From positions 2,454 through 66,453 of the forward strand of contig JAGAKP010000018.1 of assembly GCA_017625615.1 (NCBI GenBank): a stretch of DNA of 64,000 nucleotides. The letters are read 5' to 3'. The notes below the pieces were generated by a model. It did no database searches and was not told where the DNA came from. It worked only from the letters and a program-made list of their open reading frames with translations. The position numbers and the translations under genes are program-made. The stretch comes from Clostridia bacterium. GTDB taxonomy: Bacteria; Bacillota; Clostridia; Oscillospirales; CAG-382. This document shows positions 7,708-61,971 of this stretch, in pieces (within the stretch, counting starts at the first letter, position 1; each line of letters opens with the position of its first letter).

Positions 7708-7810
7708 AAAAATATTATTTCTTTTTACAAATATCGTTGCATTTTTGCAACTGTTGTGTTATTATTGGATTGATATTAAATTTTGTTAAATAATGGAGGA
7801 TATGGGCTTT

Positions 7811-8944
7811 ATGAAGGCTATTATCAACGGCAAAATAATTCTTAAAGACCGCATCGTAGAGGGCAAGGTCCTCGTTTACGACGACGTTATCCGCGGCGTA
7901 TGCGACGTTGCTCCCGAAGGCGCGGAGGTTATCGACGCAAAGGGCGGCTACGTTGCCCCCGGTCTTATTGATCTTCACATTCACGGCTATCTCGGCAAGG
8001 ACGTTTGCGACGGTGAGCCCGAAAGCATCCGTACCATCGCAGAGGGTATCGTAGCAAACGGCGTTACCGGCTTCCTTCCCACTACCATGACGGTAGATAT
8101 GCAGGTCATCCGCAAGGCGCTTGAGTGTCTGCGCAGCCTCAAGGAAGAAAGCAAGACCTGGAACGGCACCGCAATTCTCGGCTGCCACGCAGAGGGTCCC
8201 TTTATCAACGCAAAGAAGAAGGGCGCGCAGGACGAAAAGTACATACTCAAGCCCGACGCAGCTTTCGTTAAGGAATATGCAGATATCATCAAGATAATCT
8301 CTCTCGCTCCCGAAATGGACGAGGATTTCGCCGCTATCCGCGAGATCGTTGCGGATACCGACGTTGTGGTTTCCATGGGTCATACCGATGCTGATTACGA
8401 TACCGCTTACAAGGCAACCGTAAACGGCGTTTCCCACGCAACCCACCTTTTCAACGCTATGACCGCTCTCGCTCACCGTAACCCCGGCGTAGTTGGCGCG
8501 GCTCTTAATTCCGACGTTACTACCGAGCTTATCGTGGACACCTTCCACGTAAACCCCGCTCTGTATCCCATCTTAGCAAAGCTGAAGGGTGACAAGCTCT
8601 GCTTTATTACCGACTGTCTCCCCGCAGGCGGTCTTCCCGAAGGACAGTACACCCTCGGCGGCACCGCATTCATTTCCAAGGGAATCGAATGCAGACTGCT
8701 TGACGGTACTATCGCAGGAAGCATCCTTAAGCTCAACAAGGGTGTCTGGAACGTATACACCAACACCGACCTGCCCTTGTGGTACTGCGTAAACTGCGCA
8801 TCCCTCAACCCTGCAAACGCTATCGGCATGGGAGATACCAAGGGCTCTCTCGATATCGGCAAGGACGCTGATATTATTATCACCGACAATGAATTTAACG
8901 TAGAAAAAACTATTATCGGAGGCACAGTAAGATATGAAGCTTAA
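7811..8944 (+). CDS. nagA: N-acetylglucosamine-6-phosphate deacetylase
   Basis: Amidohydrolase metal motif GLIDLHIHGY, plus the HLFNAM and GSLDIGKDADI motifs typical of NagA. The ATG at 7811 is about 10 nt after a GGAGGA RBS. Confidence 0.85.
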   Translation: MKAIINGKIILKDRIVEGKVLVYDDVIRGVCDVAPEGAEVIDAKGGYVAPGLIDLHIHGYLGKDVCDGEPESIRTIAEGIVANGVTGFLPTTMTVDMQVIRKALECLRSLKEESKTWNGTAILGCHAEGPFINAKKKGAQDEKYILKPDAAFVKEYADIIKIISLAPEMDEDFAAIREIVADTDVVVSMGHTDADYDTAYKATVNGVSHATHLFNAMTALAHRNPGVVGAALNSDVTTELIVDTFHVNPALYPILAKLKGDKLCFITDCLPAGGLPEGQYTLGGTAFISKGIECRLLDGTIAGSILKLNKGVWNVYTNTDLPLWYCVNCASLNPANAIGMGDTKGSLDIGKDADIIITDNEFNVEKTIIGGTVRYEA

Positions 8945-10313
8945 AGTAAATGCTGTTCTTGATCCCCAGTTCCAGCCCCTTTCTCTCCTCTGCCGCGAAA
9001 TGCGCGAGGCAACCAAGGATAACGGTCAGGATCTCGTAATCGGTATCCAGAGAAACAAGGGCTATATCACCACTTACAAAACCAGAATTTATCCCGACGG
9101 AATCGGCAAGGATGAAGAAAATATCAATTTTGTTGACCGTCTCGTAAAGAGCCTTCTTTGGGTTGCCGGCGGTTATAAGATCATCATCGCAGGCTCCAAG
9201 GTAGTAGGCGAAAATATCAAGGCTGCTTACGCAAAGGGCGGCTCCAGAGATTTCGATAACGGCTTTATGTCTCGCGTATACGAAACCGAATTCGAGGTTG
9301 AGCTTCGCGATATCGCAGACGCTCCCGTAGATTATAACTCTCCCGCTCCCGTTGGCAGACATCTTGACGGCTGCCGTATCGGCTTTGACGCAGGCGGAAG
9401 CGACCGTAAGGTTTCCGCTGTTATCGACGGCGAAGCCGTATATTCCGAGGAAGTCGTTTGGTTCCCCAAGATCAACTCCGATCCCAACTACCACTACGAA
9501 GGCATCCTCTCCGCTATGAAGAGTGCCGCTGAGCATATGCCCAGAGTAGACGCTATCGGCGTTTCCTCCGCAGGCGTATATATCGATAACAAGATAATGG
9601 TAGCTTCTCTCTTCCTCAAGGTTCCCGACGATCAGTTCGATAAGTGCGTAAAGAATATGTATATCGACGTTGCAAAGGAACTCGGCGAGAATATTCCCAT
9701 CGAGGTTGCAAACGACGGTGACGTTACCGCTCTCGCAGGCGCAATGGATCTTGACGATACCAACGTTCTCGGCGTAGCTATGGGTACCTCCGAAGCAGGC
9801 GGATACGTTGACGGTCAGGGCAACATCACCGGCTGGCTCAACGAGCTCGCTTTCGTTCCCGTTGACAACTGCAAGAACGCTATGGTTGACGAACGGTCCG
9901 GCGATTACGGCTGCGGCGTTAAATACTTCTCTCAGGACGGCGTTATCAAGCTTGCTCCCTTCGCAGGCATCGAGCTTGACGAAAGCCTTTCTCCCGCAGA
10001 AAAGCTTAAGGTTGTTCAGAACCTTATGAAGGAAGGCGACGAAAGAGCTGCAAAGATCTACGAGACCATCGGCGTATACTTCGGCTATGCTATCGCATAC
10101 TACACCGAATTCTACGATATCAAGCACGTTCTCATTATGGGCCGTGTTACCAGCGGTGAGGGCGGCGTTATCCTTCTCGCAAAGGCGCAGGAGGTTCTCG
10201 ACGTTGAATTCCCCGAGCTTGCAAAGAAGATCACCCTCCACATTCCCGATGAATCCTCTCGTCGCGTAGGCCAGTCCGTTGCAGCTGCAAGCCTCCCCGA
10301 CCTCGGCAAATAA
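8934..10313 (+). CDS. ROK-family / ASKHA-fold sugar kinase-like protein
   Basis: GFDAGGSDRK phosphate-1 motif and VANDGDVTALAGA ROK-like motif. It overlaps nagA by 11 nt, suggesting an amino-sugar utilisation pair. Confidence 0.72.
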   Translation: MKLKVNAVLDPQFQPLSLLCREMREATKDNGQDLVIGIQRNKGYITTYKTRIYPDGIGKDEENINFVDRLVKSLLWVAGGYKIIIAGSKVVGENIKAAYAKGGSRDFDNGFMSRVYETEFEVELRDIADAPVDYNSPAPVGRHLDGCRIGFDAGGSDRKVSAVIDGEAVYSEEVVWFPKINSDPNYHYEGILSAMKSAAEHMPRVDAIGVSSAGVYIDNKIMVASLFLKVPDDQFDKCVKNMYIDVAKELGENIPIEVANDGDVTALAGAMDLDDTNVLGVAMGTSEAGGYVDGQGNITGWLNELAFVPVDNCKNAMVDERSGDYGCGVKYFSQDGVIKLAPFAGIELDESLSPAEKLKVVQNLMKEGDERAAKIYETIGVYFGYAIAYYTEFYDIKHVLIMGRVTSGEGGVILLAKAQEVLDVEFPELAKKITLHIPDESSRRVGQSVAAASLPDLGK

Positions 10314-10327
10314 AACGCAATTTAACA

Positions 10328-10370
10328 CCATCGAGTTTAAACTTATAGAAGTAGACTCGATGGCGTTTTT
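10328..10370 (+). terminator. probable intrinsic terminator after the ROK-kinase gene
   Basis: CCATCGAGT ... ACTCGATGG 9-bp stem (the loop is long, about 18 nt) followed by CGTTTTTACTTTT. Confidence 0.55.
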
Positions 10371-10386
10371 ACTTTTACGGTGTATA

Positions 10387-10415
10387 TTGACAAAAATCAA
10401 CTTTTCTGGTAAACT
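10387..10415 (+). promoter_or_regulatory. sigma-A type promoter of the four-gene AT-rich operon
   Basis: TTGACA, a 17-nt spacer ending in TGG (extended -10), then TAAACT; 45 nt upstream of the first ATG. Confidence 0.5.
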
Positions 10416-10459
10416 TTTTTGTGAAGAATTATTAAGATTTATGATGTGAGGGCGTTACA

Positions 10460-11437
10460 ATGAATTTTGCAATGGTCGGATACGGATATTGGGGACGTAT
10501 ACTGTTAAAAGCGTTTAATGACAGCAACAAACATCGAGTGACTCATTTAGCTGATCGTAATATAGATAAACTACTGCAAGCTAAAAGCATTTATCCCGAT
10601 ATTGCTATTTTCACGAATATTGACGATATCGCATTCAACGGTGACGTTGATGCTGTAATAATATCGCTACCTGCAATTTATCACTTTAATTATGCAAAAC
10701 TTTGTTTAGAAAATGGTAAACATGTTCTTATAGAAAAACCAATGACATTAACCTACAACGAAGCTTATGAGTTGAATGAATTGGCTCAAAACCTAAATTT
10801 AGTGTTAATGGTCAATCATCACTTTATTTATAAAGATGCTATACGAAGTGTAAAGCAACATATACCGTCAAGTGTCGGAAAACTACAGTATTTCGATTCC
10901 ACGCGGACAAATTTAGGCATTTTCAGAACCGATGTGGACGTTGTTTTGGATTTGGCGCCTCACGACATTTCCATTTTGCTTTATCTTGCGGAAAAACTTC
11001 CTGAATCAGTTAGCGCAATTGCTAAAGCCAATGTTGTTCCGAACAGAAATGATATCGCTTATATAACATTGTATTTTGATGATTTTATGGCACACATTAA
11101 TGTTTCGTGGATATCTGCATTTAAAAATAGAACAATAATCTTTGGGTGTGAAAACGGTACTATTTGCTTTGATGATAATAAAAGTACGGAGAAGCTAACG
11201 ATTTCTCCTGTTAGATATGTTCGGAATAACGGAAAAATTGAGTGCATTAAAAACGAAGCTTTGATAACTGAAAATGATACAAGTAACGCTTTAATAAACG
11301 TTATCGATGAATTCGCAAGTGCGATTGAAACGGGGAGGCAACCCATATCTAACGGAGAATTTGGTATGGCTGTCGCTTTAATAATCGATGCAATACAAGC
11401 GTCTATAGCCAAAGATGGAATTATTATAAAACTTTGA
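10460..11437 (+). CDS. Gfo/Idh/MocA-family NAD(P)-dependent oxidoreductase
   Basis: N-terminal Rossmann MVGYGYWG, LIEKPMT (EKP motif) and DLAPHDISIL (D..H); 325 aa, a typical length for sugar or NDP-sugar dehydrogenases of this family. Confidence 0.85.
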   Translation: MNFAMVGYGYWGRILLKAFNDSNKHRVTHLADRNIDKLLQAKSIYPDIAIFTNIDDIAFNGDVDAVIISLPAIYHFNYAKLCLENGKHVLIEKPMTLTYNEAYELNELAQNLNLVLMVNHHFIYKDAIRSVKQHIPSSVGKLQYFDSTRTNLGIFRTDVDVVLDLAPHDISILLYLAEKLPESVSAIAKANVVPNRNDIAYITLYFDDFMAHINVSWISAFKNRTIIFGCENGTICFDDNKSTEKLTISPVRYVRNNGKIECIKNEALITENDTSNALINVIDEFASAIETGRQPISNGEFGMAVALIIDAIQASIAKDGIIIKL

Positions 11438-11449
11438 GGTATTTATGTT

Positions 11450-12796
11450 ATGATATGGTTGATTGACTATAACCATTATAAAAAGGAAATTGATAGCCGA
11501 CTCAACAAGTGTAAACAAGACTATTTTATAGTTAAGAGTTATAAACGCTTTAATATTATTGGCGAAACCGCACCTGTAAAAACCAAAACTTTTTCGAACG
11601 GTCTATTGCGGCTTGCAACCATTTTAGATGCCAACGGAATTTGCGTCAGATATATGCATTACAATATGCTTGAATTTGCGTTAAACAACGGAGAACCACT
11701 TCCGGAAACTATAGCATTTTCTGCCGTTTGCCCAACCGTACCGTTGTGTGCGGCTTTAGCGCAACGAATTAAGGCGGTCTCTCCAAAAACGAAAGTAATG
11801 ATTGGAGGTGCACATATCAACGTAGCGGCGAAAGAAACAGCAAATCGTTACCCGATTTTCGATAAGTTGGTTATAGGATACGAAATGGATGCCGCACAGC
11901 AGTTGACAGATAAAAAGTTGACTGTATGCCCAAAGCCATACGTCAACTATTCTTTGTTGCCTTTTTCGCTCGCAGATTATGCGATCAATACGTTCACTAC
12001 TATGGGATGCCCCTTTTCTTGTAATTATTGTGTGGATGGACGTGCGCCGCATTTCTTTTCAAGTGAAAACGGTCAATTAGATGAAATGGTCAAGTTGTTA
12101 CCGTTAAGAACACTGGTCCATTTTTTTGATAGCGTGCTGGGTTATTCTCGGGATGGTTTAAAAAATGTTTGTAAACAAATAGAAGCCACCAAACATAATT
12201 TCGTATTAAGTTGTGATATGAGAGCCGACATGATCGACTTAGATGCCATTTACGCTTTGGAGAGTGCGGGCTTTGTCGAAATTCGTTTGGGTATGGAGAG
12301 TAGCGATTCCGATTTGCTTAAGAAAAATGGTAGAACCCTAATGTATCGCAAACTGATGGAAAAATTAGAATTATTATACTCAAAATCAAAGCTTTATGTT
12401 ACGCTATATACCATCACTGGATTGCCTGGAACCACATGGGAAATTCAAGAAAATACCCTTAAGGAATGTGATTATTTATTATCGAGCGGTCTTGTGGACG
12501 AGATTAAAAATTCTTTGTATGTTCCATACCCTATGGAGGGTGTAGATTATAGTACGCGCGGCGTAACCATTTTGAATGACAATTGGGAAGACTATGACCG
12601 ACAAAGTTATCCGGTTTATCGCACTGTCGAGTTGAGTTCTGCTGAGTTGTGGGAGATGTATATTAAAACAGCGGAAAGCATCAACACCAGCTGGCTGAAA
12701 AGCATTGGCTTTTCCGATTTTTCGGAAGTTCCATACAATCCAACCTATTATTCGGAATATATAATTCCAAACTATTTGAAAGATGAGGGAGAATAA
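11450..12796 (+). CDS. radical SAM enzyme with N-terminal B12-binding-type (Rossmann-like) domain
   Basis: CPFSCNYC CxxxCxxC cluster motif and LGMESSDSDLL. The N-terminal IAFSAVCPT...VMIGGAHI segment resembles the cobalamin-binding-like domain of class B / COG1032 radical SAM proteins. A GAGGT RBS lies 12 nt after the upstream stop. Confidence 0.85.
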   Translation: MIWLIDYNHYKKEIDSRLNKCKQDYFIVKSYKRFNIIGETAPVKTKTFSNGLLRLATILDANGICVRYMHYNMLEFALNNGEPLPETIAFSAVCPTVPLCAALAQRIKAVSPKTKVMIGGAHINVAAKETANRYPIFDKLVIGYEMDAAQQLTDKKLTVCPKPYVNYSLLPFSLADYAINTFTTMGCPFSCNYCVDGRAPHFFSSENGQLDEMVKLLPLRTLVHFFDSVLGYSRDGLKNVCKQIEATKHNFVLSCDMRADMIDLDAIYALESAGFVEIRLGMESSDSDLLKKNGRTLMYRKLMEKLELLYSKSKLYVTLYTITGLPGTTWEIQENTLKECDYLLSSGLVDEIKNSLYVPYPMEGVDYSTRGVTILNDNWEDYDRQSYPVYRTVELSSAELWEMYIKTAESINTSWLKSIGFSDFSEVPYNPTYYSEYIIPNYLKDEGE

Positions 12797-12797
12797 T

Positions 12798-14717
12798 ATG
12801 GCTTATGATACTTTTATTTGCTACAGAGGACAGAAAGTTGATGATGGAATCAGCGAGAAGATTGGCAGACGAATATACGAGCTAATAAAAAACGATGAGG
12901 ACTTCGGCGAGGTATTTTTTGCGCCCGAGTTGAAGAATAACTATAACTTTATCGAAGATACAAAAACTATTATGCCTAACTTAAAAAGAATGATAGTCGT
13001 TCTCTGTCCTGACTTTTTTGACGGAATAAACAAATCGGATACGCTTACCGATGCATCCCCGATATACCACGAGTTTTTCCAAGCGTTCAAAAATGAAAAA
13101 TGTGTTTTTATACCTGTGTTTGTTTATGGTTTCACTTGGAAAGATGACATTTTAGTTACATTAAAAAGGTATTTTTCAGAAAATGATCTTAATCGTATTG
13201 TTCACATGAGTGGTTTAAGATTGGCGGGCAACGAGTTTAAAGAAACCGACGTGAAATATTTAATGTCTGTGTGTGAAGGCGGTGATACTATTTCGCGAAA
13301 CGTTATAGATATGTGTATTGATGACCTCAAAGCTTGTAGTACCACTGTGGGGGATGCTATTGTCCCGTTAGATAAAAATACGTTAGAAACCGATTATTAT
13401 TCATATCTATATTACTGCGATCGCGAAAACACGCGATTCTTCCCAAAACTATTTTTGGATACGCTCAATGTCTGTATAAAAAATTTTAGTATTGTTGACA
13501 GCGATTTCGTTTATTGGCCTATTGACTTGGTTGAACGAGAATACGCTGACAAGGACATTAGTATATGTTCGATTTGCTTCGGAATAATGATTTTGAATAA
13601 TTGGCTAAATAAAGATATTCAATATACAAACTGCGCTGTGGATACTGCAACAGAACGTGCGTTTCAATCTGCAATTAATGGTGCTATGAATTTACTGATT
13701 TCATTGCGTTCTCCGAAATGTTATTCTTGGCCATCTATTTGGGAATTTGATAAGAAGAGCGTTGAAGGCACTATCAACCAAACAACACTTAGCTTATCTA
13801 CCCTTTTGAGTGGTGGCTTTTTATCTTTCCCTTCAAATCTTGAAGAAGACATACGAAAAGATGTTTTTTTAAAAAGATATAATTTCATCGCTCAAAGTGC
13901 TGACTGGCTGATACGGTCGAGTAACTATAGTACTTTTCTAGACAAAAGGTCTTGGGGATATATGGCGACTAATAAAACATCGGCAATACTTCCTACTGCA
14001 TTTGCGTTTGATACTTTACTCAAATTCAAAAAATGCTTAGAGGTTGCTCTTCCTGAATTTGACAATGATTGCAAGCAAAATGAGTTAAGACTGTATATGG
14101 ACAAACTACAAGTAATACTTTCTTCTACTATTAATTATTTTAAACATACCCAAAATAGTTCTGACGGTTATTTTATGAGTCCAACTGGCGAACCTTCAAT
14201 TACTCATACGTCGAAGGTTTTGAAATCGTTAGTAACATACGCAAGAAATTCAGAGCCCAATGAAATGGTAGACGAAATGATAGGAAAAGCTTTTTGTTTT
14301 TTGATTAATAAAGATTCTGCTGCTGTTATGAATTTGCCCAAAAATGAAATGTTTGAGCGCTTTCAATACACCGAAAAAAATTCTGTTAACTTATGTGGCG
14401 AAACTGAACTGGATAAGAATGATGGAGAGGACTATGAAAATTGTGGCGAGTTATTGTATTTGGATGCTTTGCTTAATGCTCATGGGTATTATAAGACTGT
14501 AGGAAATTCCCCGAGTCTCGGATTCGAAAATAAGGTTTGTGAGATTTGGAAACTGATTCGAGAAAGAAACGTAAAGCGAACTCCCGACAATTGGTTAATA
14601 TATGCTGGGAAACGTTCAGCCTATCCCAAATATCCGATATATTCTCTGTATTATTATAGGATGGTTTGTTCGGATATAATAGAATACAATGCATGGAGTA
14701 ATAGAGAAAATGTTTGA
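12798..14717 (+). CDS. TIR-domain protein fused to a large alpha/alpha-toroid-like (prenyltransferase/terpene-cyclase-repeat-like) C-terminal domain
   Basis: The N-terminus YDTFICYRGQ...MIVVLCPDFF...IYHEFF follows the TIR beta-A/beta-C/Glu layout. The C-terminal about 480 aa shows repeats such as RSWGYMATNKTSAILPTAFAFDTLL and SSDGYFMSPTGEPSITHTSKVLKSLV, which resemble the prenyltransferase/squalene-cyclase repeat. The ATG at 12798 follows a GAGGGAG RBS, 1 nt after the upstream stop. Confidence 0.78.
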   Translation: MAYDTFICYRGQKVDDGISEKIGRRIYELIKNDEDFGEVFFAPELKNNYNFIEDTKTIMPNLKRMIVVLCPDFFDGINKSDTLTDASPIYHEFFQAFKNEKCVFIPVFVYGFTWKDDILVTLKRYFSENDLNRIVHMSGLRLAGNEFKETDVKYLMSVCEGGDTISRNVIDMCIDDLKACSTTVGDAIVPLDKNTLETDYYSYLYYCDRENTRFFPKLFLDTLNVCIKNFSIVDSDFVYWPIDLVEREYADKDISICSICFGIMILNNWLNKDIQYTNCAVDTATERAFQSAINGAMNLLISLRSPKCYSWPSIWEFDKKSVEGTINQTTLSLSTLLSGGFLSFPSNLEEDIRKDVFLKRYNFIAQSADWLIRSSNYSTFLDKRSWGYMATNKTSAILPTAFAFDTLLKFKKCLEVALPEFDNDCKQNELRLYMDKLQVILSSTINYFKHTQNSSDGYFMSPTGEPSITHTSKVLKSLVTYARNSEPNEMVDEMIGKAFCFLINKDSAAVMNLPKNEMFERFQYTEKNSVNLCGETELDKNDGEDYENCGELLYLDALLNAHGYYKTVGNSPSLGFENKVCEIWKLIRERNVKRTPDNWLIYAGKRSAYPKYPIYSLYYYRMVCSDIIEYNAWSNRENV

Positions 14718-15453
14718 TAACGAACTGAAAATCGGCAGCTGGAATGTCGGATCAATGCTTTCTGATATAGAGAGAAACTTGCATTTTGTTAAGGAAACTA
14801 TCAAAGAGCATAATCCTGATGTTATTTGCTTTCAAGAGTTCCCCGATATAAAGGAGATTCGAGAGGAGATTTTAAATTCAGTAGGATACGGCAGCAGCGT
14901 GTTTAAAGTCATGTCCGAGAGTCATGTTGCACCCGGTTTGAATGTGGGGTTGTTCGTTTGTTCAAAGTATGAATTGACCTCAAGTATTATTCACAAACTT
15001 CTCAAACCCATAACCAGAGTTTATTATAATGGCAACGAGGAATTTTGGCACGATAAATTCTTTTTAAAAACCGGTATCAGTTTAAACGGAATGCAAGTAG
15101 CTATTGTCACAGGACATAGCTTCCCGTTTTATAGATATAAACTGGATGAAAAAGAATACGATTGGGTTTTCAATAGTATTGAAGATTGGATTATTGATTG
15201 TTGCAACGAAAGTACGTTTATAGTTGCTGCGGACTTTAATAGTGGAAATCCTATGGATTATATGTCGAGGATATCACAGCATAATGTCGACGCTTTCTAC
15301 GGACAGGCGACTCGTCCCAGCGGTAGGAAAACAGATGCTATTATCATCCCAAATGGTTTTATCATTAAAAGCAAAATCAATGAAACTATTGAAAGTAAAA
15401 ATGCAGCCGGTAGATTTGATCATAATTTTCTTATGCTTCATTTAGCGCTATAA
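14689..15453 (+). CDS. endonuclease/exonuclease/phosphatase (EEP) family protein
   Basis: IGSWNVGS, ICFQEFP, VTGHSFP, AADFNSGN and RFDHNFL form the N / E / H / D-N / D-H catalytic set of the DNase I/AP-endonuclease/phosphatase fold. The start is either 14689 or 14710; both overlap the TIR gene stop. Confidence 0.8.
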   Translation: MHGVIEKMFDNELKIGSWNVGSMLSDIERNLHFVKETIKEHNPDVICFQEFPDIKEIREEILNSVGYGSSVFKVMSESHVAPGLNVGLFVCSKYELTSSIIHKLLKPITRVYYNGNEEFWHDKFFLKTGISLNGMQVAIVTGHSFPFYRYKLDEKEYDWVFNSIEDWIIDCCNESTFIVAADFNSGNPMDYMSRISQHNVDAFYGQATRPSGRKTDAIIIPNGFIIKSKINETIESKNAAGRFDHNFLMLHLAL

Positions 15454-15574
15454 AGTGATTTTACATTTATTGTGGTTTTCAGCTAAAAGCGTCAAACTAA
15501 TTTGATTGCATTTTATAGTTGAAAGTATTTACCGTGTTTTATTGTGTTTTCATAAAAATAATGGGGGTTTTACT

Positions 15575-17608
15575 ATGAAAAAGAAAATTGCTTTTATTCT
15601 TGCATCCGTTTTATTAGGTACTACCTTGTGCGCTTTCCCCGTATCGGCTGAAAGCTACGACGTGGATTTCACCTGCAATATAACCGGTTACGACCAGAAG
15701 ACCTCGTCGGGATGTGTTGTCGTATATCCCAACAACACCGATTCTACCCGCGTTATCGGTTCCAGCGAGTATGCGTTCCGTTATGCAAAGCTTCTTATAT
15801 TCGATAAAAACGGCACTCTTATCGAGGCGGGCGGAGATCTGCTTGCCAACGAAAACGGCGTATACGGCTCTCCCCAGCTTACCGTAAAGATCCCCGCAGG
15901 CGGATTTATGGTAGCATATACCTCCGGAGCACCCTCGGGACTTTCCCAGTGCTACACCACCGCGATGGAAGGCGCAATGCTGTATAACGCCACCATGTCC
16001 GTTATTTATCCCGTTCACGGCGAATACAATAAGTCTACCAACAAGCTCCGCATAGCTTACGATAATCCCGTTGCTCCCTCCAAGGATGCAATAAAGTTCC
16101 TTTTCGTTGGTAACAGTACCACTTATTTCAACGGTATTCCCATAAAGTTCAAGGGACTCTGCCAAGCCGCAGGCGTTGAGGTGGTAGTCGATTACTGTAC
16201 CGACGGCAGCGCATTCCTTCAGGAATTTGCAGATCCTTCCCATACCCGCGGAAAGAAGTTCCGCAGTATGCTTAACGCAAAGAAATACGATTACGTGGTT
16301 CTGCAGGATGCCGCAGGCGCCGCATATAACAAAATGGAAGAATCCGTCGGCATAATGCTTCCTCTTATCGAAGCGAACGGCGCCACCGCCCTTCTTTATA
16401 TGCGCTATTCCAACGATCTTGACGCCTCCACCCGCGTAAATTCCTTCTATAAGCATTACCGCAATTACTCCCGCCTTGCCGATAAGTACGATCTTGAATA
16501 TTCTCCCGTTGCAAGCGCGTTCCTTAAGTGCATAGAAACCGCCCCCTCCATCAACCTTTTTGCAGATGACGGCGGACATCACTCCTGGGAAGGCAGTTAT
16601 CTTGCCGCTTGTACCTGGCTGTATTCCTATCTCGGCATCGACCCACGCGGAAACGCATATACCGCAAACCTTCCTTCCTCCACAGCAACCACACTGCAGA
16701 ATATAGCTTACGATATTGCAAAGAACGGATATCCTTATCCCGAGGAAGGCAGTGCAAACAAGGTTATTGACGGGGTTAAGTACGATAACCTCTCTCTTAA
16801 AAAGCCATATACCTCCGATGGCGCCACATATTCCGGAGATTGGACCGATACGGGCGCAGACGGCAAGCCCTTGGGCAAGTTTACCGATGGCTACGGCACT
16901 CTTACCGCCGCGGGCAGCGTCGGTGAATGCGGATGCTACAAGGGACAAAACGTAAATATAACCATCGACCTCGGCAAGGTCACCTCCGTAAAACAGGTCA
17001 CCACCGACCTTTTCGGTAACAGCGACTGGGGTATTCCTTCTCCTGCAGATGCAGGCGTAAAGGTATCCTTCTCCAATGACGGAAAGAATTTTGCCGAAGC
17101 GAAGGCACTCACAGGCGGAAGCGTTTCCAAGTCCGATTCTTGGGAAAAGCGTGATTTCACCGTCACCTTCTCCGAAATGCAGGAAGCAAGATACGTTCGC
17201 GTCGAGTATACCATTACAGGTAAATTCCTCTGGGTAAGTGAAATAAGCGTTTTCGGTAAGGATGCAAGCACCGTTTCTCCCGACGTTTCCGAACCCGATA
17301 CCGACGTATCCGTTCCCGAGGAATCGAAAGAGGATACCTCCGTGCCCGAAGAATCCGTACCTGAGGAGTCCGTACCCGAGGAAAGCGTTGCTCCCAACGA
17401 AAGCATTGCTCCCAACGAAAGCGTTGCTCCCAACGAGAGCGCGTCCGACGATGAAAGCACGCCCGCCGACGTATCCGAAAAGAGCGAGGCCGCTTCTGCC
17501 GATACCGATAAAAAGGGCGGCAGCACCGGCTGGATAATCGCCGCAGTAGGCGCCGTTGTTGCAGTAGCCGCAGTGGCAGCAGTGGTTATTTTCAGGAAAA
17601 AGAAATAG
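15575..17608 (+). CDS. secreted, membrane-anchored surface protein (SGNH-like domain + discoidin/F5-8 type C-like domain + acidic Pro/Glu/Ser repeats)
   Basis: Signal peptide MKKKIAFILASVLLGTTLCAFPVSA after a GGGGG RBS. It carries an FVGNSTTYFNG SGNH-like motif, a YVRVEY...WVSEISVFG carbohydrate-binding-module-like segment, VPEES/VAPNES repeats, and a C-terminal TM helix followed by RKKK. Confidence 0.72.
   Translation: MKKKIAFILASVLLGTTLCAFPVSAESYDVDFTCNITGYDQKTSSGCVVVYPNNTDSTRVIGSSEYAFRYAKLLIFDKNGTLIEAGGDLLANENGVYGSPQLTVKIPAGGFMVAYTSGAPSGLSQCYTTAMEGAMLYNATMSVIYPVHGEYNKSTNKLRIAYDNPVAPSKDAIKFLFVGNSTTYFNGIPIKFKGLCQAAGVEVVVDYCTDGSAFLQEFADPSHTRGKKFRSMLNAKKYDYVVLQDAAGAAYNKMEESVGIMLPLIEANGATALLYMRYSNDLDASTRVNSFYKHYRNYSRLADKYDLEYSPVASAFLKCIETAPSINLFADDGGHHSWEGSYLAACTWLYSYLGIDPRGNAYTANLPSSTATTLQNIAYDIAKNGYPYPEEGSANKVIDGVKYDNLSLKKPYTSDGATYSGDWTDTGADGKPLGKFTDGYGTLTAAGSVGECGCYKGQNVNITIDLGKVTSVKQVTTDLFGNSDWGIPSPADAGVKVSFSNDGKNFAEAKALTGGSVSKSDSWEKRDFTVTFSEMQEARYVRVEYTITGKFLWVSEISVFGKDASTVSPDVSEPDTDVSVPEESKEDTSVPEESVPEESVPEESVAPNESIAPNESVAPNESASDDESTPADVSEKSEAASADTDKKGGSTGWIIAAVGAVVAVAAVAAVVIFRKKK
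17314..17440 (+). repeat. in-frame tandem repeats inside the surface-protein gene
   Basis: 15-nt units encoding VPEES (x3-4) followed by three 18-nt units GAAAGC(G/A)TTGCTCCCAAC encoding ES(V/I)APN. Confidence 0.7.
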
Positions 17609-17747
17609 TTTTTTAGTCAATATATCCGTCCCGTATACAAAACGGGGCGGATTTTTTATATAAATATGAAATTTACTGTTGGCAAAACCGAATTTATGTG
17701 TTATAATTATTTGGAATAGGTATATTTACCGAAAAGAGGTATCTTTT

Positions 17748-18521
17748 ATGCGTGACGAAAACGTCCGTGTTAACGGAAACGACGGTATCTTCTGGGGCAG
17801 AAATTCAGTGCTTGAGCTTCTCGCCTCCGGAAGAGATATAGATAAAATATATGTACAAAAAGGCGCAGTCGAGGGAAGTATAAAGGTCATCGTCGGCAAA
17901 GCAAATGCAAGACGTATCCCCGTTGTGGAGATCGACCGTGCCCGTCTCGATAATATTTCGGGCGGCGCGGTACACCAAGGTGTTGCCGCTTCCGTGCCCG
18001 AAACGGTGTACGCCACCGTTGACGATCTTTTCGGCGTTGCCGAAAGAAAAGGCGAAAAGCCCTTCTTCGTCATCTGCGATTGCATAAACGATCCTCATAA
18101 TTTGGGTGCGATAATCCGTACCGCAGAGTGCGCAGGCGCTCACGGAGTTATAATTCCCAAGCACCGCTCGGTGTCGCTCACCTCAACGGTTGCCAAATCC
18201 TCGGCAGGCGCCCTATTCCGCGTAGCCGTTGCCCGCGTGGCAAATATAGCCTCCACGGTGGCGGAGCTTCAGAGCAGGGGAGTGTGGGTATACGCCCTTG
18301 AGGCAAACGGAAAGCCTTATTTCGGCGAAAGATTTGATGACAGCGGAATAGCCTTCGTCCTCGGCAGCGAGGGTGAGGGAGAAACCCGAATAGAAAAAGA
18401 AAAAAGCGATTTCGTCCTTTCCATACCTATGTACGGAGAGCTGAATTCGCTTAACGTATCCAATGCGGCGGCAATAATGCTGTTTGAGGCGGCGCGCCAG
18501 CGCCATGGAAAGGGGGAATAA
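17748..18521 (+). CDS. rlmB: 23S rRNA (guanosine-2'-O)-methyltransferase RlmB (SpoU/TrmH family)
   Basis: SpoU motifs NLGAIIRTAECAG, VLGSEGEG and IPMYGELNSLNVSNAAAI. The ATG at 17748 follows an AAGAGGT RBS. Confidence 0.85.
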   Translation: MRDENVRVNGNDGIFWGRNSVLELLASGRDIDKIYVQKGAVEGSIKVIVGKANARRIPVVEIDRARLDNISGGAVHQGVAASVPETVYATVDDLFGVAERKGEKPFFVICDCINDPHNLGAIIRTAECAGAHGVIIPKHRSVSLTSTVAKSSAGALFRVAVARVANIASTVAELQSRGVWVYALEANGKPYFGERFDDSGIAFVLGSEGEGETRIEKEKSDFVLSIPMYGELNSLNVSNAAAIMLFEAARQRHGKGE

Positions 18522-18529
18522 AGCAGACG

Positions 18530-21031
18530 ATGAGCGAAAGAAACGAATCCAGCGTTGAGGATATACTTAAACGGTTGCAGCACGTGTCTGCCGAAAACGA
18601 TACTGCACGTCATATTCCCATGCCCTCGGGCGGCTATAAGGCTCCCGACGGGAATTCAATGCTTGAAAAAACCAAATCGGTGGACGGGAACATTCCCACC
18701 CGCACCGAAACCGAGGATATTATTGATAAATACTCCTCCCGCGTAAAGATACAAGATGAAAAATCCTCCACTCAGGGCTTGCGCGATGCCCTTGAGGCAC
18801 GTATGGAGGACGACGCGGAGCTTAAGAATTATTATTACGGCAACAAGGACAAGCCTATGAAGAGCCGCCGTGCAGACGAGCTCTTTGCACTTATCGACCG
18901 TGCCACGGTGGACACCATCGGTCAGGCAGAGAAAAAGCCTGCGGAAATAGACACCTCCCGCTTTATGGATCCCGAAACGGTGGAAAAGCCCGTGGAATAC
19001 AAGCAGGAAGAGCTGTTCCCCATGGGCGACACCATGCCCCCTCAGGAGGACAACCGTGAGACTGCCACCTTTGACGACGACTACGCAGGACTTTCCGAGC
19101 GTGTGGTAAGCGGCAAGATCGGCTTGGAGGACGAGGACGATACTCAGCTCAGCCTCGTTTCCGAGGATAGCGACGATATCAACGTCGGTGACGGCTTGCT
19201 TGATACCAAGGATATCGGCTTGAAGATCGCTTTGGGTGAAATAGATATCGAAAGCGACGAGGTGCCCGAGGCAATCCGCGAAAAATACAAAAAGGCAGAA
19301 AACGAAGTTAACAAGAATAACGGCGAGTACGAATATACCGACAGAGCGCAGAACAACGAGGTCAACCGCCTTATGCGCCGCGGCATCCGACACGCCTTCC
19401 GCCGTCTTATTGCGGCAATACTTATTACTTTGGGTATCGTTTATCTTGAGCTTGCCACCAAGGGAGGCGCGGGATACTCAATATACCTCAGTCAGGGACG
19501 GTACGGTGTTCTGTATATCCTTGCGGATCTTCAGGTGCTGTTCTTCCTCGGTATGGTGCTTATGCCTTACCTCTCCAAGGGTGCAAAAGGCTTGTTTACC
19601 TTTAATCTTACGGCAGACAGCGTGTTCTTCTTCTCCTTCGTCGCCAGTGCGGGCTATTGTCTGGTAAGAGCGTTTATGTCTCCCACGGATCCCGATTTGC
19701 ATCTGTTCAACCTTACGGCGGCAATGTGCGGCATCTGCTCCGCGCTTATACATTATCTCACCGCCAAGAAGGATTACGCCTGCTTCAAGGTTATCGCTTC
19801 CGCAAAAAGCAAGTATGCGGCGGCACAGATATCCGGAGCATCCCGCGAATCCGATGAGTTTTATTCATATCTTCTTGAGGACAGCGATATTTACACCGTC
19901 CGCAAGACAAAGTTTATAAGCGGATTCTTCGCACGTCTCAAAAAACGTCCCAAGAGCGAGGACCTGTTCAACTTCCTGCTTCCCTTCGTGATGGTTGCCG
20001 CTATAGCCGCCCTTGCGGTAAAGGCTATTATGGGCGGAACCATGCTTGAATCTGTAAACGGCGCAATGTTTACTTTGGCAGTGGGACTTCCTCTTTCCGC
20101 CTTCTTTATAATCGCAATGCCCCTTTGCACTGCAAACCGCAGAGCAAACCGCTCCTCCTCCTGCTTTATCGGTCCCGCCGTTGCAGAGGAATATGCGGAC
20201 GCTTCCGTTATCTCCTTTGCGGATACGGAGGTATATCCCTCCCACCTCGTAAAGATAACCAGCTTCCGCACCTACGGAGATTTCCGTATCGACCGTATGC
20301 TTATCGAGCTTTCACGTATCTTCAACTACGTGGGCGGACCTCTCGAAAAGGTTCTGTCTTCCACCATAACCGAGCCCGTAGAGCCTGCACAGTACATCCG
20401 CGTTCTTGAGTCTGCCTCCGACGGACTCCGCGTGGTTCTTGACGGTAAGGAGTATTTCATCGGAAAGCGCGCCTATATGCGCCGCTACCGCTTTGAGGCT
20501 CCCAAGGACGAGATAGACGATATGTACGAAAACAGCGTCGGCTCCGTAATGTTCGTTTCGGTAGGGGATCATCTGGCGGTAAAGCTGTACATCAAGTATT
20601 CCATCAACCCGTTGTTTGACGAATTGCTTCGCGATATGAACAAATCGGGCTTGTGCGTTGGAATAAAAACACTTGACCCCAATATAAATAACGATCTCCT
20701 TGCAAACGGTATTAAATATAAGAAGTGCCCCATCGCCATCCTCAAGGCGGGCAACCCCGAGGATATGACGAAGGTATCCAAGGAAATAGATTCCGGTATC
20801 GTTACAAACTCCGGACTTCATAATTTCCTGCGTATTTTCGCTCTGTGCGATAAGACGCGTCATATCATAAAGAGCAACGCTATGATATGCGTTATCGGCA
20901 CGGTGCTGTCACTTGTGGCGGCAGGATTTATGCTTTTCGTGGGGGATACGAGCAATATTCCCTCGGTCTATACGGTGCTGTTCCAGCTCGTTTGGGTGCT
21001 CCCCGTATGGCTGCTTTCGATGATTTTGTAA
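18530..21031 (+). CDS. polytopic membrane protein resembling a catalytically degenerate P-type ATPase, with a long acidic N-terminal extension
   Basis: 833 aa. The first about 290 aa are acidic and low-complexity, followed by at least 8 hydrophobic helices. The segment SFADTEVYPS sits where P-type ATPases carry DKTGTLT, and FVSVGDHLAVKLYIKYSINPLFDELLRDMNKSGLCVGIKTLDPN sits where they carry the ...TGD hinge region. This is a by-eye alignment only. Confidence 0.55.
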   Translation: MSERNESSVEDILKRLQHVSAENDTARHIPMPSGGYKAPDGNSMLEKTKSVDGNIPTRTETEDIIDKYSSRVKIQDEKSSTQGLRDALEARMEDDAELKNYYYGNKDKPMKSRRADELFALIDRATVDTIGQAEKKPAEIDTSRFMDPETVEKPVEYKQEELFPMGDTMPPQEDNRETATFDDDYAGLSERVVSGKIGLEDEDDTQLSLVSEDSDDINVGDGLLDTKDIGLKIALGEIDIESDEVPEAIREKYKKAENEVNKNNGEYEYTDRAQNNEVNRLMRRGIRHAFRRLIAAILITLGIVYLELATKGGAGYSIYLSQGRYGVLYILADLQVLFFLGMVLMPYLSKGAKGLFTFNLTADSVFFFSFVASAGYCLVRAFMSPTDPDLHLFNLTAAMCGICSALIHYLTAKKDYACFKVIASAKSKYAAAQISGASRESDEFYSYLLEDSDIYTVRKTKFISGFFARLKKRPKSEDLFNFLLPFVMVAAIAALAVKAIMGGTMLESVNGAMFTLAVGLPLSAFFIIAMPLCTANRRANRSSSCFIGPAVAEEYADASVISFADTEVYPSHLVKITSFRTYGDFRIDRMLIELSRIFNYVGGPLEKVLSSTITEPVEPAQYIRVLESASDGLRVVLDGKEYFIGKRAYMRRYRFEAPKDEIDDMYENSVGSVMFVSVGDHLAVKLYIKYSINPLFDELLRDMNKSGLCVGIKTLDPNINNDLLANGIKYKKCPIAILKAGNPEDMTKVSKEIDSGIVTNSGLHNFLRIFALCDKTRHIIKSNAMICVIGTVLSLVAAGFMLFVGDTSNIPSVYTVLFQLVWVLPVWLLSMIL

Positions 21032-45452: not shown

Positions 45453-45527
45453 TGGTGACCCGTAGGAGAATCGAACTCCTGTTACCGCCGTGTAAGGGCG
45501 GTGTCTTAACCGCTTGACCAACGGGCC
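45453..45527 (-). tRNA. tRNA with UAC anticodon (formally tRNA-Val) on a tRNA-Glu-type body
   Basis: The minus strand reads GGCCCGT TG GTC AAGCGGTTAA GAC A CCGCC CTTACAC GGCGG TAAC AGGAG TTCGATT CTCCT ACGGGTC A CCA. The cloverleaf is good, with a 3-bp D stem, a 4-nt variable loop and the ACACCGCCCUU.CACGGCGGUAAC core typical of bacterial tRNA-Glu, but the anticodon is UAC instead of UUC. Confidence 0.8.
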
Positions 45528-45532
45528 GTTTA

Positions 45533-45608
45533 TGGTAGCGGAAGTGGGACTTGAACCTACGACCTGCCGGGTATGAACCGGATGCTCTGCCAACTGAGCT
45601 ATTCCGCC
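45533..45608 (-). tRNA. tRNA with CAU anticodon (Met or lysidine-Ile2 type), slightly degenerate
   Basis: GGCGGAA TA GCTC AGTTGGCA GAGC A TCCGG TTCATAC CCGGC AGGTC GTAGG TTCAAGT CCCAC TTCCGCT A CCA. The cloverleaf folds but has G1.U72, U27.C43 and A51.C63 non-Watson-Crick pairs. Confidence 0.7.
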
Positions 45609-61894: not shown

Positions 61895-61971
61895 GTCCCA
61901 ATAGCTCAGTTGGATAGAGCACACGCCTCCTAAGCGTGGGGTCGGAGGTTCAAGTCCTCTTTGGGACGCCA
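61895..61971 (+). tRNA. tRNA-Arg (anticodon CCU)
   Basis: GTCCCAA TA GCTC AGTTGGATA GAGC A CACGC CTCCTAA GCGTG GGGTC GGAGG TTCAAGT CCTCT TTGGGAC G CCA. The cloverleaf is canonical. Confidence 0.9.

Follow-up and report, generated by a model that had tools for sequence, protein, structure and literature searches.

A 64,000-nucleotide (nt) stretch of a Clostridia bacterium genome (assembly GCA_017625615.1, contig JAGAKP010000018.1; referred to below, at its full length, as the window) contains a compact gene cassette encoding a radical SAM enzyme (rSAM), a fusion of a TIR domain to an (alpha/alpha)6 toroid, and an enzyme of the endonuclease/exonuclease/phosphatase (EEP) fold, preceded by an oxidoreductase of the Gfo/Idh/MocA family. 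We propose that this cassette is a self-contained, horizontally mobile conflict module, most likely an anti-phage defence system of an undescribed kind, and give this proposal a probability of about one half. It is based on the architecture and evolutionary behavior of the cassette, rather than on defence-island statistics or a phenotype. TIR-containing mobile operons of the defence type are a known kind, and the core formed by the rSAM and the adjacent large protein is without a described counterpart.

In the window and in about 19 distinct loci from metagenomes and genomes, the rSAM, TIR-toroid and EEP genes lie next to each other and point in the same direction. These loci, designated by L numbers, are L001/2, L003 (=L013), L004, L005, L006/7, L008-L011, L014, L015, L019, L021 and L083-L085, and the count also takes in L012, which is cut at a contig end, and L020, in which the toroid lacks a TIR domain. 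The order is permuted to EEP-rSAM-TIRtoroid in L003. The Gfo/Idh/MocA gene was present in 4 of about 26 loci (the window, L005, L019 and L085), lying upstream of the rSAM gene in L005, L019 and L085. The core therefore consists of three genes, with the oxidoreductase as an accessory, and not of the four genes that an earlier reading of the window from its letters alone (the sequence-only reading) had taken as the unit.

The three core proteins differ in their conservation. Mean pairwise identity over the same 14 loci was 58% for the rSAM, 36.5% for the EEP enzyme and 30% for the TIR-toroid protein, a pattern of constraint on the enzyme and diversification of its partners. The TIR-toroid protein was represented by 18 clusters among 5.8 billion sequences in a word-indexed search, and by about 45 full-length representatives in an exhaustive hidden Markov model search.

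More distant variants of the cassette, with rSAM orthologs 35-46% identical to the cassette rSAM, keep a large adjacent protein and change the other parts. L022 and L026 contain the rSAM, an EEP enzyme and a Metallophos fusion protein, which in L022 carries a TED-like toroid (TED, thioester-containing domain; Pfam A-macroglobulin TED PF07678, 2e-5). In L016 and L017, the rSAM is accompanied by a single protein of about 1050 amino acids (aa) with the layout EEP-Metallophos-X. In L027, the rSAM is joined by a 636-aa protein in which one region is TED-like (2.3e-5), and a NYN-domain protein replaces the EEP enzyme. L020 contains the rSAM, a toroid without TIR (motif GTCNQTT) and an EEP enzyme. 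An AAA protein, the rSAM and a 607-aa protein without assignment make up the cassette of L025. These variants are tied to the cassette family by rSAM orthology, and for L022 and L027 also by the Pfam TED matches. The deepest conserved pair is the rSAM and the adjacent large protein, which is a toroid wherever this could be assessed, with the TIR and EEP parts exchangeable.

The TIR-toroid protein matched no model in Pfam, NCBIfam or PADLOC, and a PDB search with the single sequence gave noise. Its domains were assigned using a profile built from 18 homologs, together with an AlphaFold2 model (pLDDT 82.5, pTM 0.72; two domains) searched with Foldseek. The family profile matched the TIR domain of SARM1/TIR-1 (E = 2e-4), with FICYR, which forms beta-A, aligned to FISYR, and Glu92 (in IYHEFF) aligned to the catalytic Glu of the SARM1/TIR-1 'HKE' motif. 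In the model, this domain has the five-strand alternating beta/alpha topology bA-aA-bB-aB-bC-aC-bD-aD-bE-aE as assigned by DSSP, and matched the SARM1 TIR domain 9ugj_B (TM 0.69, E = 6.5e-3). Glu92 was invariant in 47 of 47 full-length relatives, in which the mean identity over the TIR region was only 25%. Glu92 is the predicted catalytic residue, and the domain is predicted to be competent for NAD+ cleavage. A weak match to Pfam TIR_2 (0.038) was obtained for one member of the family. The same TIR clade also occurs fused to NB-ARC/AAA_16-TPR (STAND-type), GDPD and PP2C-like proteins.

The second domain of the model matched several (alpha/alpha)6 toroids with Foldseek probability 1.0 and E values of 1e-4 to 7e-3, including GH105/YteR, cellobiose 2-epimerase, GH8/GH76, class II terpene cyclases and the complement C3d/C4 TED; sulfoquinovose isomerase was among the best folds. 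Its signature residues are W240, C257, G262, W311, GTINQTT (324-330), R360, K409, P613 and Y618, and the set conserved across 47 relatives includes N327, Q328, T329 and T330. No Asp or Glu was conserved at 93% or more across these relatives, and glycosidase or class II cyclase chemistry is therefore disfavored. A TED thioester was likewise rejected, as the CGEQ motif is absent, GTINQTT contains no Cys, and the Cys of GTCNQTT in L020 is mis-spaced. The similarity to the C3d/C4 TED (TM 0.57-0.59) was not better than that to other toroids, and no member of the TIR-toroid family matched PF07678.

Conservation within the cassette is highest for the rSAM, which has homologs in about 90 clusters at 35-63% identity. 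Pfam assigned a B12-binding domain (PF02310, 35.1 bits against a cutoff of 32.1) and a radical SAM domain (PF04055, 40 bits against 29.5), and the cluster-binding CxxxCxxC motif (Cys187/191/194) was invariant in 31 homologs. The enzyme thus has the B12-binding-domain (class B-like) radical SAM architecture, and may use cobalamin and transfer methyl groups. Its closest solved relative was the diol-dehydratase AprD4 (6fd2, 1e-14), and the NCBIfam AprD4 model matched with 3.4e-13 (49 bits against a cutoff of 500). The domain layout is shared by AprD4, which is nonetheless a dehydratase that works without cobalamin, and the chemistry of the cassette enzyme may therefore be either methylation or dehydration. 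Weak NCBIfam matches were also obtained to enzymes that modify proteins or RiPPs (ApyD, 7.7e-9; MCR Gln C-methyltransferase, 0.013), and the matches to small-molecule rSAMs were stronger than those to protein-modifying ones. One 607-aa database protein (P0112) joins an rSAM core of the cassette family to about 100 C-terminal toroid residues. It could be a genuine fusion, or could result from a frameshift or an assembly error.

The accessory oxidoreductase contains the Rossmann motif GYGYWG, the EKP motif and the C-terminal domains PF22725 and PF02894, as expected for the Gfo/Idh/MocA family. Its nearest NCBIfam models were UDP-GlcNAc 3-dehydrogenase and inositol 2-dehydrogenase, both far under their cutoffs.

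The EEP enzyme is predicted to be catalytically intact, with the full residue set (N12, E43, D175, N177, D209, D237 and H238) invariant in 17 homologs and across loci. Its AlphaFold2 model (pLDDT 93.8) matched bacterial EEPs, neutral sphingomyelinase, TDP2 and Nocturnin (E ~1e-12 to ~1e-13, TM 0.64-0.73). Since the model is about equally near to nucleases, sphingomyelinase and the NADPH 2'-phosphatase Nocturnin, it does not discriminate between DNA, RNA, lipid and NADP as the substrate class. All five domain calls of the sequence-only reading are thus borne out, by Pfam for the oxidoreductase, rSAM and EEP enzyme, and by the profile and structure model for the TIR domain and toroid; its GxGxxG motif can be read in the translations as GYGYWG, along with EKP, CPFSCNYC, YDTFICYRG and IYHEFF.

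In the window, the four genes form a tightly packed series on the plus strand (Table 1), the third ending at 14717. Genes 1 and 2 are separated by 12 nt, and genes 2 and 3 by 1 nt, or overlap by 14 nt if gene 3 starts at 12783. The overlap of genes 3 and 4 is 8 or 29 nt, the latter with a start of gene 4 at 14689. Starts at 12798 and 14710 are preferred from homolog alignments, and each of the four starts is preceded by a GAGG/GGAG Shine-Dalgarno sequence. No internal gap of precursor-peptide size is present in the cassette, and no terminator of the hairpin/T-run type was found 3' of its last gene.

Table 1. Features of the cassette and its upstream border in the window
Feature	Coordinates	Strand	Basis
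Hairpin terminator of upstream ROK-family gene	10324..10373	+	Inverted repeat, 16-nt arms, 12-nt loop, T-run
Candidate sigma-70 promoter, TTGACA-17 nt-extended -10 TG-n-TAAACT	10387..10415	+	Promoter scan
Low-GC island, coextensive with the four genes	10320..15500	.	Composition
Gfo/Idh/MocA NAD(P)-dependent oxidoreductase, 325 aa	10460..11437	+	Pfam GFO_IDH_MocA (PF01408) 5.6e-25, plus PF22725, PF02894
B12-binding and radical SAM enzyme, 448 aa	11450..12796	+	Pfam B12-binding 1.3e-8, Radical_SAM 6e-10, both above threshold
SARM1-like TIR domain, ~residues 1-160 of 639-aa fusion	12798..13277	+	Family profile and Foldseek
(alpha/alpha)6 toroid, ~residues 165-639 of fusion	13290..14717	+	AlphaFold2 model and Foldseek
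EEP enzyme, 247 aa	14710..15453	+	Pfam Exo_endo_phos 3.1e-7

The left edge of the low-GC island lies at the terminator of the ROK-family gene, where the hairpin proper (10324-10367) is followed by the T-run and G+C drops from about 0.53 to about 0.36. In 500-nt windows, G+C was 0.33-0.41 within the cassette and 0.45-0.55 outside, and the overall values were 0.365 for the cassette versus 0.485 for the remaining window. G+C at third codon positions was 0.29-0.39 in the four cassette genes versus 0.55-0.61 in six neighboring genes. The candidate promoter was the top-scoring site on the plus strand (10 of 12 matches, with the TG). Promoter-like sites in this region were not more numerous than in shuffled sequence, and the promoter is therefore plausible, not proven. 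With this qualification, the sequence-only reading gave an accurate picture of the locus, which it had described as four packed co-directional genes behind the ROK hairpin and a TTGACA-17-TGgTAAACT promoter, forming an AT-rich, compositionally foreign and self-contained operon with a shift to A/T-ending codons. No tRNA, integrase-sized open reading frame (ORF), or direct or inverted repeats beyond chance were found in the island flanks when signatures of mobile elements were sought.

The cassette is rare, with 14 loci found among 185,579 species genomes (one genome per species). Most of the hosts belong to Oscillospiraceae, Faecousia or Lachnospiraceae of the gut or rumen, and one is a Candidatus Magnetominusculus (Nitrospirota); variants also occur on high-GC metagenome contigs (L025, L027). 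A sharp low-GC island was seen in the window, L014, L020, L022 and L026, and elsewhere the composition was that of the host. One locus (L015, JAMPHX010000013.1) is labelled 'MAG: Corallococcus sp.' and carries a Clostridia-type cassette at a G+C of about 0.47-0.49; myxobacteria have about 70% G+C, and the contig is for this reason probably mis-binned.

The flanking genes vary between lineages, and are mostly housekeeping, metabolic or carbohydrate genes. At 55 related loci with nagA-ROK genes (L028-L082), from metagenomes of the human gut and of herbivores and with the ROK protein up to 83% identical, none of the four cassette genes was present. An exact empty site was not recovered from these loci, because synteny 3' of ROK is not conserved. 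The nagA-ROK pair itself (window 7793-10313, with an 11-nt overlap at 8934-8944) is kept in most of the longer contigs among them.

A single clear defence-gene neighbor was found. On a Hadza gut metagenome contig (L083:10001-20595), genes for the rSAM, a 728-aa TIR-toroid protein and the EEP enzyme lie 208 bp upstream of cas9-cas1-cas2-csn2 in the same direction, the neighbor being a complete type II-A CRISPR-Cas system. In L006, a WYL gene lies 7 kb from the cassette. No copy of the cassette was found on IMG/VR viral contigs, the scan giving only rSAMs of 21-24% identity, and a fold search of BFVD gave nothing significant. One of these distant rSAMs lies on a 51-kb viral contig (L023:8001-9167, IMGVR_UViG_3300031566_000057; 21% identity over query residues 66-428); it is of the same broad type and unrelated to the cassette.

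Several other genes were seen beside the cassette. A PHP-domain gene lies directly upstream of the rSAM gene inside the low-GC stretch of L004 (285-968), and in L001 (7747-9056) the opposite strand carries, 3.4 kb downstream, a pair of Metallophos and PHP_C genes; either may be an accessory module. RyR-domain proteins recur next to the cassette in L005 and L014, and very large proteins with a transglutaminase core in L005 and L020 (L005:3339-5651 and 18108-20595; L014:6215-8788; L020:1742-6940), which may reflect shared synteny or a functional link. In L020, the EEP gene is seemingly duplicated or broken (10083-11403), with a full copy at 10083-10898 followed by a 120-aa fragment at 11038-11403.

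Downstream of the cassette, the window contains a 'surface protein' ORF (15506-17608) listed from a TTG at 15506, with a likelier start at the ATG at 15575 (MKKKIAFILASVLLG, signal-peptide-like). At its end are low-complexity repeats (VPEES/APNES) and a hydrophobic anchor. Long shadow ORFs in antisense orientation overlap this ORF (15614-17620) and the ROK gene (8913-10400). The tRNA genes of the window, a tandem tRNA-Val(TAC) and tRNA-Met(CAT) on the minus strand (45453-45608) and a tRNA-Arg(CCT) on the plus strand (61895-61971), all lie at a great distance from the cassette and show no association with it.

The conflict or defence role is suggested by several properties of the cassette. It is a compact, self-contained unit that has moved between phyla, and it pairs a constrained enzyme with fast-diverging partners. 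TIR, Metallophos, EEP and NYN domains, all of types that degrade nucleotides or nucleic acids, are swapped around a fixed core, a modularity typical of defence systems. The catalytic Glu of the TIR domain is invariant, and the TIR clade is common to STAND-type NTPase proteins. Further support comes from the rarity of the cassette, its linkage over about 19 loci, the proximity to CRISPR-Cas in L083, and weak matches of the rSAM to the PADLOC model PDC-M51A. The absence of a precursor-peptide gap, and of a consistent natural-product or polysaccharide cluster nearby, points in the same direction.

From the domains, catalytic residues, linkage, swaps, mobility and rarity observed, we infer a possible substrate, order of steps and immune role as follows. 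The toroid of the fast-evolving TIR-toroid protein would bind a ligand or infection cue, and the TIR domain would cleave NAD+. The rSAM would then act by radical chemistry on a nucleotide or sugar, derived from NAD+ or otherwise, in either a dehydration by analogy with AprD4 and viperin, or a B12-dependent methylation. Where present, the oxidoreductase might reduce or oxidize the resulting keto-sugar. The EEP enzyme could trim phosphate from the resulting product, or serve as a nuclease effector. The outcome would be depletion of NAD+ and/or an antiviral or signalling nucleotide that halts phage replication.

A more specific form of this idea, which we consider rather unlikely, places the rSAM and toroid at the core of a new immune chemistry. 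The rSAM might convert an NAD+-derived nucleotide made by the TIR domain to a new antiviral or signal molecule in a viperin-like manner, or might mature a TED-like toroid into a reactive sensor or tag, with TIR, Metallophos, EEP and NYN as interchangeable killing modules.

Several observations weigh against a defence role. The optional sugar-type dehydrogenase also suits a metabolic role, and the toroid is as close to sugar isomerases and glycosidases as to TED domains. Carbohydrate genes flank several loci (nagA/ROK in the window, GH125/GH38 in L006, and fucose genes in L017 and L083). Nothing in the cassette points to a trigger, a sensor logic or a means of self-protection, and no precedent for a B12-type rSAM in characterized defence systems was found in the literature. 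The Metallophos-linked proteins of L022 and L016 could not be shown to be homologous to the cassette toroid (hhalign E = 0.015 and 0.19; probability 3% at E = 0.015). The toroid was detected among the variants in L022 and L027 only, as L026, L016/17 and L025 could not be assessed, and a constant toroid with swapped heads would for these reasons be a partly conjectural picture. The sequence-only reading had named, as an outcome that would speak against defence, a consistent embedding of homologous cassettes in polysaccharide or natural-product clusters with no defence-island association. The first part was not seen, no such cluster being consistently near the loci. As for the second, the CRISPR-Cas neighbor makes 1 of about 26 loci that adjoin a known defence system, and enrichment in defence islands was not demonstrated from the annotated flanks.

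Another explanation, which we regard as unlikely but a serious candidate, is a horizontally acquired small-molecule cassette without an immune role, making a modified nucleoside, sugar or antimetabolite, or salvaging such a compound. The TIR-like domain would be an N-glycosidase with a nucleotide or NAD as its substrate, the toroid would isomerize or epimerize a sugar, and the EEP enzyme would remove phosphate. The rSAM would dehydrate or methylate a sugar, as AprD4 does with AprD3 in the 3'-deoxygenation of apramycin, with the oxidoreductase handling the keto intermediate. The similarity of the rSAM to AprD4 in both the structure and NCBIfam comparisons, and that of the oxidoreductase to UDP-GlcNAc 3-dehydrogenase and inositol dehydrogenases, are consistent with these roles. 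So are the presence of cellobiose 2-epimerase, sulfoquinovose isomerase and GH105 among the best folds for the toroid, the EEP fold being as near to Nocturnin as to nucleases, and the location of several loci among carbohydrate genes. The high conservation of the rSAM, moreover, suggests a fixed small substrate. Pathway steps, however, should not swap, and here TIR is replaced by Metallophos or by nothing, and EEP by a NYN RNase. The oxidoreductase is missing from most loci, and the cassette is not accompanied by a transporter, resistance gene, regulator or further tailoring gene. The toroid lacks the invariant acidic residues needed by glycosidases and class II cyclases, and the clade of the TIR domain is one common to STAND-type NTPase fusions. 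A mean identity of 30% in the TIR-toroid protein is also unusually low for a pathway enzyme beside an rSAM at 58%.

The constancy of the rSAM and large protein can also be explained if the rSAM is a maturase of the toroid protein, which is compatible with defence and which we consider improbable. It would introduce a modification, for example a C-methylation or crosslink, in the GTINQTT/Cys257 region, activating a TED-like domain for binding or tagging in the style of complement, with TIR and EEP as output domains. Only the rSAM and the adjacent large protein stay together through all the domain swaps, two variants match the Pfam A-macroglobulin TED, and the model of the cassette toroid matches the C3d/C4 TED. 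The GT[I/C]NQTT motif is nearly invariant, and the weak NCBIfam matches to ApyD and the MCR Gln C-methyltransferase are to B12-type rSAMs that methylate proteins or RiPPs. A published defence system, HXS, contains an effector matured by an rSAM (PMC13128918). Against this, the thioester motif CGEQ is absent, and the fold match does not separate TED from other toroids. The small-molecule rSAM models in NCBIfam matched better than the protein-modifying ones. That unrelated genes lie together by chance, or that ORFs were mis-called in AT-rich sequence, would suit the missing terminator 3' of the last gene but is a negligible possibility, excluded by the conservation of the trio, which recurs across lineages in conserved order as overlapping or near-abutting ORFs, with three proteins exceeding Pfam thresholds and both structure models confident.

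If the cassette is a defence system, it would link radical SAM chemistry to TIR/NAD+ chemistry, which is central to bacterial, plant and animal immunity (SARM1). A fixed core of rSAM and large protein with swappable TIR, metallophosphoesterase, EEP and NYN parts leads to testable hypotheses about its product or ligand. The cassette hosts are strictly anaerobic gut and rumen Clostridia, which are poorly sampled by aerobic screens in E. coli and Bacillus, and an oxygen-sensitive, cobalamin-linked system would escape such screens. A biosynthetic cassette, on the other hand, would define a new and compact way of making a modified nucleotide or sugar.

Comparison with known systems did not identify a named defence system that fits. 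No PADLOC model matched the oxidoreductase, TIR-toroid protein or EEP enzyme of the window, and at E <= 0.1 the TIR-toroid proteins of the window and of 18 homologs gave no match other than one spurious HamB hit. The likeness to the PADLOC candidate system PDC-M51 consists of the weak match of the rSAM to component A, PDC-M51A, seen in 30 of 31 family members (best 3.9e-12) and partial for the window rSAM (residues 103-196, 94 residues, E = 4e-5); the other cassette proteins match no PADLOC model. Full-text literature searches returned no description of this gene combination and no mention of PDC-M51. The sequence-only reading had also been unable to match the gene content to any named system, and had suggested an undescribed defence system. 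The first part of that suggestion, the undescribed gene content, stands, and the defence role is a proposal.

Like Thoeris and other TIR systems (SpbK, TIR-STING, SPARTA and TIR-STAND/Avs), the cassette is a small mobile operon with a TIR domain that has a conserved catalytic Glu. It likewise combines TIR with a separate hydrolytic protein, and its TIR clade is also found on STAND-type NTPase-TPR proteins. It differs in lacking a ThsA-type SLOG/Macro sensor-effector, a pAgo, STING or an NTPase. Its TIR domain also differs in being part of a fusion with an (alpha/alpha)6 toroid and in its constant linkage to a B12-type rSAM, and distant variants dispense with this domain. For Thoeris specifically, there was no match to ThsB models, and the operon partners are the Gfo/Idh/MocA protein, the B12-type rSAM and the EEP enzyme, with no ThsA-type effector, likewise in the related loci. 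Assignment to SPARTA or short pAgo systems, CBASS, Pycsar or Avs is not supported, as no pAgo/APAZ, CD-NTase, pyrimidine cyclase or STAND NTPase was found among the four proteins by Pfam and PADLOC.

AprD4/AprD3, an rSAM diol-dehydratase and NADPH reductase for C3'-deoxygenation of apramycin, share with the cassette the rSAM core match and the N-terminal B12-like domain, and the cassette rSAM is paired with an NAD(P) oxidoreductase in four loci. The cassette differs in that no aminoglycoside cluster is present, and that its oxidoreductase is of the Gfo/Idh/MocA type and missing from most loci. HXS, in which the rSAM matures an HxS-repeat effector, is the only published rSAM-partnered defence system that we found (PMC13128918). 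The two have in common an rSAM that is the obligatory partner of another protein. The HXS enzyme matures a repeat peptide/periplasmic effector (PMC13128918), whereas the cassette is cytoplasmic, contains no HxS repeats or peptide gene, and has a B12-domain rSAM.

With the prokaryotic viperins (pVip), the cassette shares a radical SAM enzyme in a compact, mobile and possibly antiviral locus, and the radical sugar dehydration by AprD4 is chemically parallel to the synthesis of ddhCTP by viperin. No PADLOC pVip match was obtained, and the nearest solved structure was that of AprD4, not viperin. The cassette rSAM differs from pVip in its N-terminal B12-binding domain and central CxxxCxxC motif, and in that it is never stand-alone and has a large protein partner. 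If the cassette functions in defence, its rSAM would represent a second, architecturally unrelated class of radical SAM enzymes in prokaryotic immunity, beside the viperins.

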